A stretch of 64,000 bases of DNA from a virus (Duplodnaviria > Caudoviricetes), in the IMG/VR virus record IMGVR_UViG_3300038412_000083, positions 1-64,000 of that record; one strand, 5' to 3'. Both the position numbers and the translations under genes were made by a program. Under the pieces are notes generated by a model. That model was not told the DNA's origin. It ran no database searches and saw nothing but the letters and a program-made list of their open reading frames with translations. Positions 4,335 to 64,000 of this stretch are shown here, one piece after another (the first letter of the stretch is position 1; the number at the start of each line of letters is the position of its first letter).

Positions 4335-4664
4335 ATGGGAAATATACTTTGTGCTGCTATTTGGTATAAAGAACTTGATAAGATGTCTGATAAATGGGTT
4401 CCTAATGTTGAAGGGTTTATGCGCCCTAAAAACATTGATAAAGGAATTGTAATTTGCGGATATAGGCATCCAAGTTGTATGTACACAATGATTGCTATTA
4501 CCGGAAAAAGAAGTGTTACTGTTGAGTGTGGCGAATACGTACAAGGATTTCTTACTTCTGATAATAGATTTGTTGATAGAGAAGAAGCCGCTAAGATATT
4601 TATTGATAACGGAGGTAAATTGCAATATTCTGCAATAGAATTATTTTCTGAAGATTTATATTAA
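4335..4664 (+). CDS. Conserved phage protein (GFLTSDNRFVDREEA motif)
   Basis: Motifs CAAIWY, GYRH and QGFLTSDNRFVDREEA. Confidence 0.75.
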   Translation: MGNILCAAIWYKELDKMSDKWVPNVEGFMRPKNIDKGIVICGYRHPSCMYTMIAITGKRSVTVECGEYVQGFLTSDNRFVDREEAAKIFIDNGGKLQYSAIELFSEDLY

Positions 4665-4674
4665 AACTAATCCA

Positions 4675-5910
4675 ATGCAACCACTCCCCAATAATTGCAG
4701 AATAGGTAAATTCTCCGTGTCACCAAAAAACTGGCAATCATCCGCTGCTAAGGTGAATGTGAAATGGAGAATCGTTTATTGGTTTTACGACGATAATTTG
4801 AAACAAAAACGACAGGTTCCCATCAAAGGAATGAACCGGTTTGAAACTTTAAAAGAAAAGCAAGATGCCGTCCGGGCACTAATTAAGGATGAACTTGAGT
4901 CGATAAAGGCCGGTTACAATCCAATAAACAAGAAAGTAGTACAGGAATCGGAAATAAACAAGTTTACAGGGCTTCTAAATGCACTGAATTACGCCTTTGC
5001 TTGTCATAGTTCAGAAATGGATAAGCGAACAACTACCGACGTTAAAAACGTTCTTAAATACATCTTTATCGCAATTCGCGATTTGCGATATGAACACCTG
5101 CCTATCTCTCAGATTGAGCCTATGCACATCAAATTTATTTTAGATGCCTGCGGTGAGATAAAAACTTACACTGATCAGAAAGGGAACGTAAAGCCGCGCG
5201 CCTGGGGGCCATATCAATTTAATCGTTACCGGACTTATCTGTCCTTACTCACGGGACATTTGATTGATAAATTTTTAATAAATACTAACCCGGTTCGTGA
5301 AGTAAGGAAACAGCAGCAATTAATTAAGATCAGGGAAACCGTTACAAAAGATCAAAGACAAAAATTACAGGAAATTAACACCGAGGAACTATACACTTTC
5401 TTTCGGTTCATAAATATTTACTTTCACTCAAACCGCCGGATTACAGAATTACTGGCAGTGAAAAAAGAAAGCGTACGTTTAGAAAATCAAAAGTTCAAGG
5501 TGACAATGAGAAAAGGAAAGAAGTCAAAAGAAATTTGGGCAACAATAGAAGGACCTGCTTTACCTTTTTGGGAGGAAATTTGCTCTGAAGCTGAACCAAA
5601 TCAGTACCTTTTCGGGCTTGATCTCAAACCACAATTTAGGGATAAACCAGCATCAGGGGAAATAGTTGGTAAACGATGGAAACGGCACGTAAAAGATAAG
5701 TTAGGAATTACGGCGGATCTTGCCAGTTTGAGACATACCCACGCCGACGAACTTGCAGAATTATATAGTAAGATAGGAGGCGCAAAAGAAGCTATTAAGG
5801 AAGTGCAAAAGGATATGGATCATTCAACCCCTGTTATTACTATGCGTTATTTACCAGGGCAGGAAGAAAGGAATCATGAAGAAGCGAAGAAAGTAAATAG
5901 TAAATTATAA
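4675..5910 (+). CDS. int: Tyrosine integrase
   Basis: Catalytic motifs RRITELL, ASLRHT, DMDHS and TMRY; N-terminal arm-binding-like region; adjacent attP-like site. Confidence 0.9.
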   Translation: MQPLPNNCRIGKFSVSPKNWQSSAAKVNVKWRIVYWFYDDNLKQKRQVPIKGMNRFETLKEKQDAVRALIKDELESIKAGYNPINKKVVQESEINKFTGLLNALNYAFACHSSEMDKRTTTDVKNVLKYIFIAIRDLRYEHLPISQIEPMHIKFILDACGEIKTYTDQKGNVKPRAWGPYQFNRYRTYLSLLTGHLIDKFLINTNPVREVRKQQQLIKIRETVTKDQRQKLQEINTEELYTFFRFINIYFHSNRRITELLAVKKESVRLENQKFKVTMRKGKKSKEIWATIEGPALPFWEEICSEAEPNQYLFGLDLKPQFRDKPASGEIVGKRWKRHVKDKLGITADLASLRHTHADELAELYSKIGGAKEAIKEVQKDMDHSTPVITMRYLPGQEERNHEEAKKVNSKL

Positions 5911-58901: not shown

Positions 58902-59957
58902 ATGTATTACACAACAACCACCAACAGTCAAACCTTTCAACCGGCCAATAAACAGAGAACGCTATTTTTGCCCCTTTTTAGCCTCATGGCTGATAAAATG
59001 CGTGAAGGCAAGTTATTAACGCCGGACGGTAACAAATACAGCCATAACACAGTCAAGAATTATCAAACAGATATAAAAGCCTTTAAAGCATATCAGGAAG
59101 AAACAGAAATTATTTACCTGGAGGAGATTTCTATTAAGTGGGCAGAAGATTTTAATATTTGGATGATGGATAAAGAATATAGTAAAAATACTATTGCCGG
59201 AACACTCCAACGCATTAAAGCCGTTTTGCGCCGTTTAAAGCATGAAGGAGTTACAACATTCGACGGATCCGGAATAAGAGCGGCAACAGAACAAACAACA
59301 ACCGTATTTAATACTATTGAAGAATTGAAGACACTACTGGAAGCTGATTTTTCAGATACACCGGGATATGACAGAGTAAGAGATATTTACGTGATTCATT
59401 GTTTTCTTGGCCTTCGCTTTTCTGATCTTGCTATTTTGCTTGCAAATCCTAAAAACTATTTAAGAGAGATGGGCGGCAAACTGTACTTTGAAATCAAGAC
59501 GCAAAAGACGGGTGAGATTGTTTTCATCCCCGTTTCGAGGTCTGTTAAACAGGTGTGCGACAGATACCAATGGAATTTCGGGGATTTATTCACCTACCAG
59601 TATTACAACGAAGCAATCAAAGAAATAGCAAAGAGGGCCGGATTAACTGAAAATATAGTATTCAGCAGGACGGAAGGCGGGAAAAGAGTAGATAAGCAAG
59701 TTCAGAAGTTTGAATTAATGAGTAGCCACACCGCCAGGCGAACATTTGCGACCAATGCGCACTTATCAGGGATAGCAGAAAGAGATATTATGTTAATCAC
59801 CGGCCACAAGACAACGGCCAGCTTTTATAAGTATATCAGGAGCAGCAGCATGGAAAACGCTATTAAGATTGCCAACCACAACTTTTTCAACTTAGATATG
59901 CCGGTAACTATTAGCTTGCCGCAGGAAGTAAAACAAGAACTTAAACTATTATTTTAA
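58902..59957 (+). CDS. Second tyrosine recombinase (SAM-like core-binding plus catalytic domain)
   Basis: GLRFSD, QKTG, SHTARRTFAT, TGHKT and FYKY motifs; no obvious arm-binding domain. Confidence 0.92.
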   Translation: MYYTTTTNSQTFQPANKQRTLFLPLFSLMADKMREGKLLTPDGNKYSHNTVKNYQTDIKAFKAYQEETEIIYLEEISIKWAEDFNIWMMDKEYSKNTIAGTLQRIKAVLRRLKHEGVTTFDGSGIRAATEQTTTVFNTIEELKTLLEADFSDTPGYDRVRDIYVIHCFLGLRFSDLAILLANPKNYLREMGGKLYFEIKTQKTGEIVFIPVSRSVKQVCDRYQWNFGDLFTYQYYNEAIKEIAKRAGLTENIVFSRTEGGKRVDKQVQKFELMSSHTARRTFATNAHLSGIAERDIMLITGHKTTASFYKYIRSSSMENAIKIANHNFFNLDMPVTISLPQEVKQELKLLF

Positions 59958-62053: not shown

Positions 62054-62533
62054 TTAATCATTTTTAATTAAATTTTCCAAATTCCTAATTACATTTTGAT
62101 AATTTAATGCAGTAAAAGTTAGCAACGGCCATCCTAAACTTTGAGCAAGGTTTGATTTATCACTATCCCGTGTTGCTCCAGCAGCAGAACTATGACCGCT
62201 TTTAGTTTTCATAAAAATTCCTCCCTGGTATTCAATGGCAGCTACAATATTTTCATTTGTATATTCAAACTCTCGCGCTTGTTTTTCAGTTACGCCTTTC
62301 ATTACCACAAAATCAAACCTGTATTTTCTTTTTTTATCGAACTTTAATTCAGGTATTACAATAAACCCTATCTTCTCGCACCAATATTTTAGCTGCCAGT
62401 GAATCCATTGAACTTCTTTACAATCGTTCCGGGCTTTTACTACTTTCTTTATCGTTTTTCCGGTATCAGGAACGAGGTGTTGATTTCTTGCGCCGCAGGG
62501 TGATTTTAATATTGCTTCTATGGTGGGTTTCAA
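62054..62533 (-). CDS. PD-(D/E)xK (Vsr/DUF559-like) endonuclease
   Basis: YRFDF...AIEYQGG...RDSDKSNLAQSLGW. Confidence 0.8.
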   Translation of the reverse strand: MKPTIEAILKSPCGARNQHLVPDTGKTIKKVVKARNDCKEVQWIHWQLKYWCEKIGFIVIPELKFDKKRKYRFDFVVMKGVTEKQAREFEYTNENIVAAIEYQGGIFMKTKSGHSSAAGATRDSDKSNLAQSLGWPLLTFTALNYQNVIRNLENLIKND

Positions 62534-62724
62534 AGTTTATTTTTTAACTGATGGTAACTTACATTGCCGCCTTCAATGTTCCATGACATTGTAGATCCTT
62601 TTACCTTAGCCTCAATTAATCTAAATTCTTTTCCAGGCATTAAATACTTTGGCTTTATAAAGCGATATTCCTGTTTTTCTATTCGGAATAGAAGTTTCTT
62701 TTTATCAATTAGTTGTATTGTCAT
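62530..62724 (-). CDS. Hypothetical protein
   Basis: 64 aa; starts at the end of the truncated attC half-site. Confidence 0.6.
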   Translation of the reverse strand: MTIQLIDKKKLLFRIEKQEYRFIKPKYLMPGKEFRLIEAKVKGSTMSWNIEGGNVSYHQLKNKL

Positions 62725-62753
62725 GTTGCGTAAATAAACGAGTTATACGGCAA
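62722..62753 (-). mobile_element. Left half of an attC-like site (truncated)
   Basis: TTGCCGTATAAC-TCGTTTATTTACGCAAC contains the YopX stop and complements the GTTATACGGC that opens the cassette. Confidence 0.7.
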
Positions 62754-63174
62754 TGCTCCCTGTCGAAATTAATTCAGGGTTGTCGTGGATGTTCCCGGCT
62801 ACTTCCATTTTATAAAGATTTATCTCTTCATTATGCCATTGAGAAGCGGCGCAAGAAATAATTTCTTTACCTCTATAAGTGTTTGGCATTGAAAGATAAA
62901 AACCTCCGATTGCGCCAATCCATTTTATAACATAAATTACTTCACTTTCACTTTTTAAAATATCATTCTCGAATATTTTTTTACCATTTTTATCTAATAG
63001 ATTTATGCACTGTCCTATTGTTTCAGGAATAACCTCATCCATGTGCATATCCTTATCAGTATTTTTAGATGTGAGAATCCAATGCTTACCATTGCGCTCA
63101 TCGATATACAAAAATCCATAAGTCCAAGTGTTATCAAATTTATCTTTGCCTCTAAATAAAATTTCCCTTTTCAT
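62743..63174 (-). CDS. YopX-family protein on a gene cassette
   Basis: MKREILFRGK...WTYG...PETIGQC...DKNGKKIFENDI...EVAGNIHDNPEL. Confidence 0.9.
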   Translation of the reverse strand: MKREILFRGKDKFDNTWTYGFLYIDERNGKHWILTSKNTDKDMHMDEVIPETIGQCINLLDKNGKKIFENDILKSESEVIYVIKWIGAIGGFYLSMPNTYRGKEIISCAASQWHNEEINLYKMEVAGNIHDNPELISTGSIAV

Positions 63175-63225
63175 GATTTTTATGTTTTTATAGTTTGAAA
63201 TAATTTTCTCGTTTACCGCATCGCC

Positions 63226-63358
63226 GTATAACAGCCCGTTTTGCGCAAGCAGGGCAGACCTGCAAGCGCTCAACATTTTTTCTCTAATCAACTTTAGTGC
63301 CTGTGCTGGGCAGACCGTTTTCAAATATCCTGCCTTCGCAAAGCGGAAAACGTAAGGC
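63226..63358 (-). mobile_element. attC-like site 2
   Basis: Left core GCCTTAC, inner box CTTTGCGAAGGCAGG pairing imperfectly with CCTGCTTGCGCAAAA, right core GTTATAC. Confidence 0.8.
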
Positions 63359-63362
63359 GCAA

Positions 63363-63725
63363 TTAAACCAATTCGTAATCGCTTCGTTTGTACCTGATAA
63401 AACGAACTCTGGTTTCCATTTCAATCGAACTTAAGATTCTGTTGGCAGCACGAAAACATACTTCTGCTACTATTTTATCTGGCAAATCGGCAATAGTAAT
63501 CATTACACTATTGTGGATTAGTTTAATGAAATTTCTTAACCGAGGAGATATTTTAATACCCATGTCTTTTAAGCTATCGAGACACACATAAACATCTGTA
63601 AAATGTATCAACAAACTGCGCCTTACATTGTGTTTGGCAATAGGCTTTGCAGACCTGCGAGTTTTGAACACCTGTTCGCTATCAACTTTAGTTCCAGCGA
63701 ACGAACTTTTATCAACTTTTTTCAT
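63363..63725 (-). CDS. Cassette-borne hypothetical protein whose reading frame starts inside attC1
   Basis: Cassette bounded by GTAAGGCGCA (63626-63617) and TGCGCCTTAC (63361-63352). Confidence 0.7.
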   Translation of the reverse strand: MKKVDKSSFAGTKVDSEQVFKTRRSAKPIAKHNVRRSLLIHFTDVYVCLDSLKDMGIKISPRLRNFIKLIHNSVMITIADLPDKIVAEVCFRAANRILSSIEMETRVRFIRYKRSDYELV

Positions 63726-63811
63726 TTTATGATCTTTTGGTTTTTAATTAATCTTTTGTTCCGGCTTGACGTGCGCTATTTCAGCCAATCGCCAAGCCCT
63801 GACCGTAAGGC
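63620..63811 (-). mobile_element. attC-like site 1
   Basis: TGCGCCTTAC...TTGGCGATTGGCT and AGCCTATTGCCAA...GTAAGGCGCA: paired outer cores and inner boxes separated by unequal spacers. Confidence 0.8.
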
Positions 63812-63817
63812 GCAAGG

Positions 63818-64000
63818 CTACTTTTCTCTATTCTTTACGTGTTCACAATAATGAAAATTATAATCAGAGGGATTGTTATAAATTCTTACATCTAACCCTT
63901 GCATAGCGTACTCTGTAAGCTCTTTTATCATTCTTTCATTTTCTTCAACATCAGTACCATCTATGAAGTCGGTGTGTAATGCTGTTACAGCAAAAACGCT
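63818..64000 (-). CDS. 3' end of a hypothetical gene (probable further cassette)
   Basis: Open frame ...DGTDVEENERMIKELTEYAMQGLDVRIYNN...KNREK* ends just before TGCGCCTTAC. Confidence 0.55.
   Translation of the reverse strand, partial: SVFAVTALHTDFIDGTDVEENERMIKELTEYAMQGLDVRIYNNPSDYNFHYCEHVKNREK

Follow-up and report, generated by a model that had tools for sequence, protein, structure and literature searches.

In the sedentary chromosomal integrons of Vibrio, a true IntI gene lies next to attI and is transcribed away from the array, and the open reading frames (ORFs) lie upstream of their attC sites. In T4-type phages, small early genes are reportedly flanked in hyperplastic regions by PeSL units, each made up of a promoter and a stem-loop, and gene shuffling by homologous recombination is said to have been proposed for them. 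Clusters of attC sites lacking integron-integrases (CALINs) are already in print for phages; of six sites in that study, P12002L_attC1 was predicted by HattCI only and was the one that IntI1 failed to recombine (Qi et al. 2023, PMC9892861). In the Bacteroidales, rAID-1 loci have been described, in which a XerD-like recombinase precedes a co-directional series of genes interspersed with integron-like repeats (Ross et al. 2019; 10.1101/471110). The IntI insertion is not fully conserved in an integron-like subgroup of recombinases (Smyshlyaev et al. 2021). Here we analyze an array of hairpin elements and genes in the IMG/VR virus record IMGVR_UViG_3300038412_000083 (G000), which is 74,050 bp in length and has direct terminal repeats (DTRs). 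The window, the whole stretch of DNA originally read, comprises 64,000 nucleotides (bases 1-64000 of this record), and coordinates past 64000 are genome positions on the same scale. The region is probably a mobile gene-cassette array belonging to an integron-like site-specific recombination system of Bacteroidota and their phages.

Structure of the elements

The array signal is real and far beyond chance. G000 carries four homologous hairpin elements of 145-204 nt on the minus strand, from 64721 to 63220, two of which lie past the end of the window. The original prediction, made from the window, comprised two attC sites and a half-site; the sites and the lone terminal core stand, but the count does not. 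The 10-mers that it described at the cassette ends are exact and lie within approximately 3 nt of where it placed them on the minus strand.

Each element consists of an R'' box (..GC-NNN-TAAC, then G), a spacer of 6-8 nt, the L'' stem arm, a loop, the L' arm, a spacer of 2-4 nt and an R' box (TGTTA-NNN-GC, with TGTAA in two copies). The stem arms are long and imperfect (for example, L'' TTGGCGAAGGCAGG pairs with L' CCTGCTTTTCGCCAA). The loop is AT-rich, 70-130 nt long and carries repeated AAAGTTSA motifs. Across the family, the element is an imperfect hairpin of 130-200 nt. A covariance model (R1) trained on nine elements from three phages matches 4 elements in G000, 11 in G001 (a 48.8-kb contig) and 9 in G002 (a 71-kb DTR contig). 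Every copy within an array has the same orientation.

The first element of the G000 array, E-1, is located past the window at 64721-64575 (R1 score: 63 bits). E0, also past the window, spans 64226-64081 (126 bits) and has the R' box GTAAGGCGCA at 64093-64084. E1, at 63614..63817 (75 bits), corresponds to the first attC site of the original prediction. It has the R'' box TGCGCCTTAC at 63814-63805 and the R' box GTAAGGCGCA at 63626-63617, its loop carries approximately 60 nt of extra sequence, its fold closes on a 10-bp R stem and it includes the ATG of the next gene. E2, at 63220..63364 (103 bits), corresponds to the second predicted attC site and has an L''/L' stem, an AT-rich loop and a hairpin fold. 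Its boxes are the exact 10-mers TGCGCCTTAC (R'', 63361-63352) and GTTATACGGC (R', 63232-63223).

The stem covaries. Pairing occupies 92.7% of the L-stem cells across 53 phage elements, compared with 57% in shuffles, and compensatory changes are found at 17/17 pairs, in an alignment that was fitted to the model and therefore leans towards structure; an unfitted MAFFT alignment had already given compensatory changes at 12/17 pairs. The AAC of R'' and the TGTT of R' are invariant in all 53. The pairing of the inner boxes includes wobbles as well as the bulges that had been noted in the window. These wobbles are biased to the sense strand (51 G.T vs 23 A.C) and derive mostly from one conserved GAAG/TTTT motif, which is possibly a strand marker.

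The loop is also where many of the downstream genes begin. In 28/53 phage elements, the downstream ORF opens with an ATG whose place in the loop hardly varies (54-85 nt ahead of the element end). These ORFs continue through L' and R', mostly in a constant frame, and so begin with a recurring N-terminal peptide, for example (F)A(K/N)xVLxAxV, which sits on unrelated proteins including several methyltransferases. In G000, loop ATG starts are found for p141 (64646-64575) and gene A (63725-63617) and, optionally, for the YopX gene (63276-63223).

Complementarity of boxes across genes

The variable triplets of the cores covary across the intervening gene or genes and not within an element. This end-box rule was evaluated for 38 pairs of consecutive elements, drawn from 14 phage loci, by comparing R'(i) with R''(i+1) at their six variable positions. 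The boxes are complementary at 5/6 or more positions in 30 pairs and at 6/6 in 19. For random box pairs, the corresponding values are 18% and 5%, and for the two boxes of the same element they are 15/53 and 4/53. A permutation test of the rule gave 0 of 10000, and complementarity of this kind is the hallmark of integron cassettes. Most of the failures are spots where the E-value cut skipped a weaker element.

In G000, the end cores of p80, gene A and the YopX gene are complementary at 10/10 positions (3/3 framed genes). It is the copy of GTAAGGCGCA past the window edge (64093-64084) that frames p80 like the other cassettes. Of the three left cores, the first and second are preceded by a stop codon (by 3 nt and 1 nt) and the third contains one, in agreement with the original description. 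The array ends at 62742..62751 in a lone inverse core, GCCGTATAAC, which contains the YopX stop codon and has no L boxes after it; this core would be the primary insertion (attI-like) site. In the three arrays first examined (G000, G001 and G002), a lone inverse core with no L boxes beyond it closes the array, either at the last stop codon or shortly after it, and in G001 and G002 it is 10/10 complementary to the last R'.

The fold energies follow the same pattern. When the p80 site is rebuilt with the R'' of its own cassette, its fold is -30.9 kcal/mol, compared with -20.7 kcal/mol for the hybrid present in the array. The corresponding values for the YopX site are -26.4 and -21.4 kcal/mol. 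The cassette architecture proposed for the window is thus upheld in its cross-gene covariation, but the unit that moves differs from that of an integron: as the following comparison indicates, it is an element with its downstream gene.

Related phages and shared cassettes

A blastn search of the array region against the phage collection gave no match. Members of the element family are present in 15 other phage contigs, in Polaribacter phage P12002L (in a short form; P12002L_attC1 is a 65-nt member) and in chromosomal arrays of Bacteroidota. A pattern search added 12 further array-bearing IMG/VR contigs. Related phages have the same element family with other genes between the elements.

G001 and G003, two phage contigs from one metagenome, have a methyltransferase cassette in common (75% identity over 817 nt). 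The homology starts at CATAACG, in the R'' of one element, and stops at the TAACG of the next, and both flanks are unrelated. These bounds indicate that the mobile unit is an element plus its downstream gene, with a crossover within CATAAC(G). Together with the variation in gene content, this cassette supports the earlier suggestion that such phages gain or shuffle genes through a cassette system. Certain other homology blocks span one element and only ~26-30 nt, and ordinary homologous recombination evidently also reshuffles these regions, judging from such blocks and from the p141 and p80 homologues described below.

Two further features of the related arrays were observed. In G002 (L012 5640-5730), two elements enclose a 90-nt "cassette" that lacks an ORF and is bordered by a 19-bp imperfect inverted repeat, an extension of the cores. 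In G001 (L006 5810-6178), the first ORF past the lone core resembles the C-terminal 120 residues of a Dda/RecD-type helicase, and a split helicase gene may contain or adjoin the array.

The whole array stretch is present in one public run only, a mine drainage metagenome, as contigs. In a comparison of four public runs, the gene bodies were without cover and the joints seen were replacements from the arrays of other organisms. The element positions themselves (L005 3148-3390, 3553-3876, 4039-4281 and 4525-4767; genome positions are obtained by adding 60000) are covered at 85% likeness or more by contigs of four runs, three of them soil metagenomes (from two studies) and one from a wetland, with several hundred contigs in each of two soil runs. 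This suggests that the element family is very abundant in soils.

Recombinases associated with the arrays

In some relatives of the G000 array, a tyrosine recombinase gene adjoins the elements. In two phage loci, L099 and L100, the array runs into a gene for an Xer/IntI-like recombinase of 270-300 aa, with a lone core 40-55 nt upstream of its start codon that is 10/10 complementary to the last R'. A profile built from the array-adjacent enzymes retrieved five phage contigs, four of which carry this element family.

A core-based pattern matched 64 bacterial genome contigs. Among these, the matches to R1 are almost exclusively Bacteroidota (Kaistella, Epilithonimonas, Lewinella, Chitinophagaceae, Saprospiraceae, Sphingobacterium, Winogradskyella and others), and the pattern matches from Vibrio and other proteobacteria do not fit R1. 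Kaistella treverensis has at least 32 copies of the element, and its small contigs break inside the array. The array of Kaistella contig C7 follows the same end-box rule as the phage arrays, and it adjoins a gene for a 374-aa recombinase beside recA. The best solved relatives of this protein are XerA, IntI4 and XerD. An arrangement of array and recombinase gene recurs in at least five further bacterial loci.

The array-adjacent enzymes of Kaistella and Lewinella fit the integron-integrase model TIGR02249 only at positions 2-180 and 239-315 and score below its cut-off. Positions 181-238 of the model, which correspond to the IntI insertion, are absent. No protein above the cut-off was found in three array-rich bacterial genomes.

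In Kaistella, the cassette genes run antisense to the phage-based element model and in the direction of the recombinase gene; the bacterial cassettes therefore keep the canonical ORF-then-site geometry. The phage genes are on the other strand, so that the site precedes its gene. No cassette common to the sampled phage loci and the sampled bacterial loci was found. In Epilithonimonas (G017; L091 952-3124), genes for a SacI-type restriction endonuclease and a C-5 cytosine methylase lie on the opposite strand directly after the last element. These two genes may form a restriction-modification cassette.

G000 encodes two tyrosine recombinases. The first (58902..59957, plus strand) is arm-less, has SAM-like and catalytic domains and lies 2.8 kb away from the end of the array. 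Its TIGR02249 score is 15 bits, for a cut-off of 265. No link between this gene and the array was found and it has no close relatives in IMG/VR; it is listed here as a neighbor. The second, which is larger (4639-5910, plus strand; 411-423 aa), is encoded at the opposite genome end and is presumably the lysogeny integrase, unrelated to the array-linked family. Both were considered as candidates for the array-linked type and rejected, as their similarity to that family is only generic. No trace of the array-linked recombinase was found in the 74-kb genome. The original prediction had noted that no IntI was visible and had pointed to the rest of the genome and to the host as places to look; it holds for the full record, in which neither tyrosine recombinase is IntI or of the array-linked type, and Xer/IntI-like enzymes were found beside related arrays of Bacteroidota and of two phage loci. 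As G000 has no cognate recombinase, its array is CALIN-like and any shuffling would depend on an Xer/IntI-like enzyme of the host or of a co-infecting phage.

Proposed model

The anatomy, covariation, cassette-bounded homology and array-recombinase link in relatives described above are observations. From them we infer the chemistry, the exact cut site, the strand that folds and activity in G000, as follows. A tyrosine recombinase would cut within the CATAAC(G) core of R''. The circular cassette, made up in order of an element, a gene and the cassette's own R'' half, would enter the array at its 3' end, where the lone core would be the target. Its R box would be perfectly paired as long as it is a circle, and after insertion each site in the array would be a hybrid. 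That the R' of one element pairs with the next R'' across a gene would be explained by the array sites being hybrids of two cassettes. The loop would supply the translation start and a putative promoter. If both are present in the loop, a cassette would be self-expressing regardless of its position in the array.

Several findings weigh against this reading. Recombination was not seen, and G000 yielded neither an empty site nor a circle, the one public run with the whole stretch holding it as contigs. Among the contigs with homologues of the downstream Vsr-like gene, none carries an element or a clean empty site. In G000, the p141 cassette departs from the end-box rule, as its two cores do not complement each other. 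In G002, the homologue of p141 (79% identical; ~86% nucleotide identity, confined to the ORF) has other flanking elements and cores on both sides. A homologue of p80 (67% identical, 123 aa, L096) is outside any cassette frame. Pfam detects no tyrosine recombinase in 13 other array-bearing phage records, several of which are complete, and this makes dependence on a host enzyme an assumption. P12002L_attC1, a member of the family, failed to recombine with IntI1 in the published assay. The sense and antisense folds are similar in energy, and energy therefore cannot decide which strand is recombined.

We regard as possible, without yet favoring it, a wider scheme in which a single network of cassette exchange links Bacteroidota with their phages and is driven by an Xer/IntI-like recombinase lacking the insertion that is regarded as essential for integron chemistry. 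Phage cassettes would be inverted, self-expressing units whose loop serves as promoter, provides the start codon and adds a short leader to the N terminus, and phages that lack the enzyme, such as G000, would borrow that of the host during infection to swap anti-defence and accessory genes. If this is true, integron-type gene capture is not confined to IntI-bearing bacteria, and a large phage group gains and reorders early genes (such as those for methyltransferases and YopX) by means of folded-DNA cassettes. The scheme offers a concrete mechanism for the hyperplastic accessory regions of phage genomes, bears on the recombination of folded single-strand sites by an enzyme without the IntI insertion and would be a possible channel of gene flow between phages and the chromosomal arrays of their hosts.

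Alternative explanations

The elements could be regulatory repeats, each a promoter with a stem-loop terminator, that lie between early genes and are shuffled by ordinary homologous recombination in a PeSL-like manner, with no dedicated recombinase. The AT-rich loops with their AAAGTTSA repeats, the fixed position of the ORF start in 28/53 elements, the lack of a recombinase in most array-bearing phages and the homology blocks that comprise an element and only ~26-30 nt are all consistent with such a role. It does not predict that the triplet of an R' box matches the next R'' across a gene and mismatches its own element, that a lone core lies at the array end beside a recombinase gene or that homology breaks inside a 7-nt core, and we consider it unlikely. 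Somewhat less probable is that the sites are bona fide attC sites, either taken from a classical integron of the host or acted on by its true IntI. The R boxes do have the invariant AAC/GTT of attC, a pattern based on the commonest end-box pair also matched Vibrio, Alteromonas, Spirochaetota and other bacteria, and HattCI called the short family member in Polaribacter phage P12002L an attC site. That site is the one on which IntI1 failed, and the matches outside Bacteroidota do not fit R1. The lack of an integrase above the cut-off in the three array-rich bacterial genomes, the absence of positions 181-238 from the adjacent enzyme and the travel of the element with its downstream gene also argue against true attC sites.

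It is very improbable that the hairpins and box pairing act in RNA (in mRNA processing, stabilization or translational control) and have no role in DNA rearrangement. The bias of the wobbles to the sense strand and the ORFs that begin inside loops would fit an RNA function. An Rfam scan of the array region matched no family, and the genes of the bacterial arrays are antisense to the elements, so that the mRNA in those arrays is not the sense-strand RNA. Pairing over 10 bp would also be weak when 250-1250 nt of translated RNA lie in between, and the cassette-bounded homology and the adjacent recombinase would be left unexplained. More remote still is the insertion between genes of miniature transposable elements (miniature inverted-repeat transposable elements [MITEs], repetitive extragenic palindromic sequences or IS200/IS605-derived palindromes). 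E1 has perfect 10-bp terminal inverted repeats, as such an element might, and the several hundred contigs that match element positions in each of two soil runs, along with those from the wetland, could reflect dispersed repeats. In E0 and in E2, the two ends mismatch and instead match the neighboring elements, all copies within an array have a single orientation and the neighbor of the arrays is a tyrosine recombinase, with no HUH or DDE transposase seen there. The cassette array of an integron-like system thus remains the reading that we prefer.

Cassette genes and neighboring genes in G000

On the minus strand, the order is a 128-aa ORF, E-1, p141, E0, p80, E1, gene A, E2, the YopX gene, the lone inverse core, a 64-aa ORF and the Vsr-like gene. 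All of the cassette genes are on the minus strand. p141 (64221-64646) lies past the window and has its start ATG inside the E-1 loop. p80 occupies 63818-64060, of which 63818..64000 is in the window, and encodes a Cys-rich protein of 80 aa. This protein corresponds to the C-terminal 80 residues of its closest homologue, in L096 (5001-5372), which is located after a lone core and among non-cassette genes. Gene A (63363..63725) encodes 120 aa if started at the loop ATG at 63725, and it matched no known family. The YopX gene (62743..63174) encodes a 143-aa protein with a match to Pfam PF09643 (E-value: 2.7e-17). An in-frame ATG at 63276, in the E2 loop, would extend this protein to 177 aa.

The 128-aa ORF upstream of the array reads into or through E-1 (64712-64643). 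If the R'' half of E-1 (..GCCACTAA) is joined to the sequence after the lone core (CTCGTTTATTTACGCAACATGA, 62742-62722), the 128-aa ORF would end in an ATGA overlap with the 64-aa gene. On these letters, the joined sequence looks like a pre-insertion junction; no homologue of the 128-aa ORF was found with which to probe it. Downstream of the array, a 159-aa gene (62054-62533, minus strand) belongs to a family labelled very-short-patch-repair endonuclease (DUF559) in public sources. This Vsr-like gene has many homologues on metagenome contigs (45-72% identity).

Comparison with known systems

A literature search, which did not cover all journals, found no description of this hairpin anatomy, of reversed phage cassettes or of a site family common to phages and hosts. 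Xer/dif modules (pdif) are built of 28-bp XerC-spacer-XerD sites in alternating orientation, whereas sites of the G000 family are hairpins of 130-200 nt in one orientation. The R box alone presumably resembles a Xer arm. The PeSL units are similar to the G000 elements in that repeated units flank small early genes and gene shuffling is proposed. They differ in that the G000 family has core covariation across genes, breakpoints within a 7-nt core and a dedicated recombinase beside related arrays.

The rAID-1 loci resemble the Kaistella arrangement, in which a XerD-like recombinase is followed by co-directional small genes with repetitive intergenic sequences; the likeness is one of arrangement. 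As far as the available portion of that report goes, rAID-1 is found on gut Bacteroidales chromosomes and mobile elements with immunity genes as cargo, and neither the hairpin and core anatomy nor phage arrays are described. The definition of rAID-1 calls for a 5' XerD-like recombinase with 44% or more identity to BF9343_RS08045, ahead of at least two co-directional low-GC genes; G000 has no such recombinase.

The Vibrio sedentary chromosomal integrons are similar in having long arrays of homogeneous long sites (the Vibrio attC sites are ~120-130 nt). The commonest-end-box pattern also matches Vibrio contigs, but those matches do not fit R1. With integrons and CALINs in general, the G000 family has in common R''-L''...L'-R' hairpins, the invariant AAC/GTT, hybrid array sites and cores that covary across genes. 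Like the phage CALINs, it includes methyltransferase cargo, and G000 has no integrase. With four R1-called sites and no IntI in 74 kb, the G000 array resembles a CALIN, which is formally defined as two or more attC sites, called by IntegronFinder, with no integron integrase nearby. The differences are that the G000 sites are longer (145-204 nt), that the element belongs to the downstream gene, with the genes on the opposite strand, and that the phage ORF often starts in the loop, which has a putative promoter. The enzyme linked to the arrays of relatives lacks the IntI insertion and is below the TIGR02249 cut-off. An integron attC site lies downstream of its ORF and is crossed over in R' (G|TT) on the ORF-sense top strand, whereas the phage cassette runs from R'' to the next R''. 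The G000 array therefore falls short of a canonical integron, in the lack of an IntI as well as in the geometry of its ORFs and sites.

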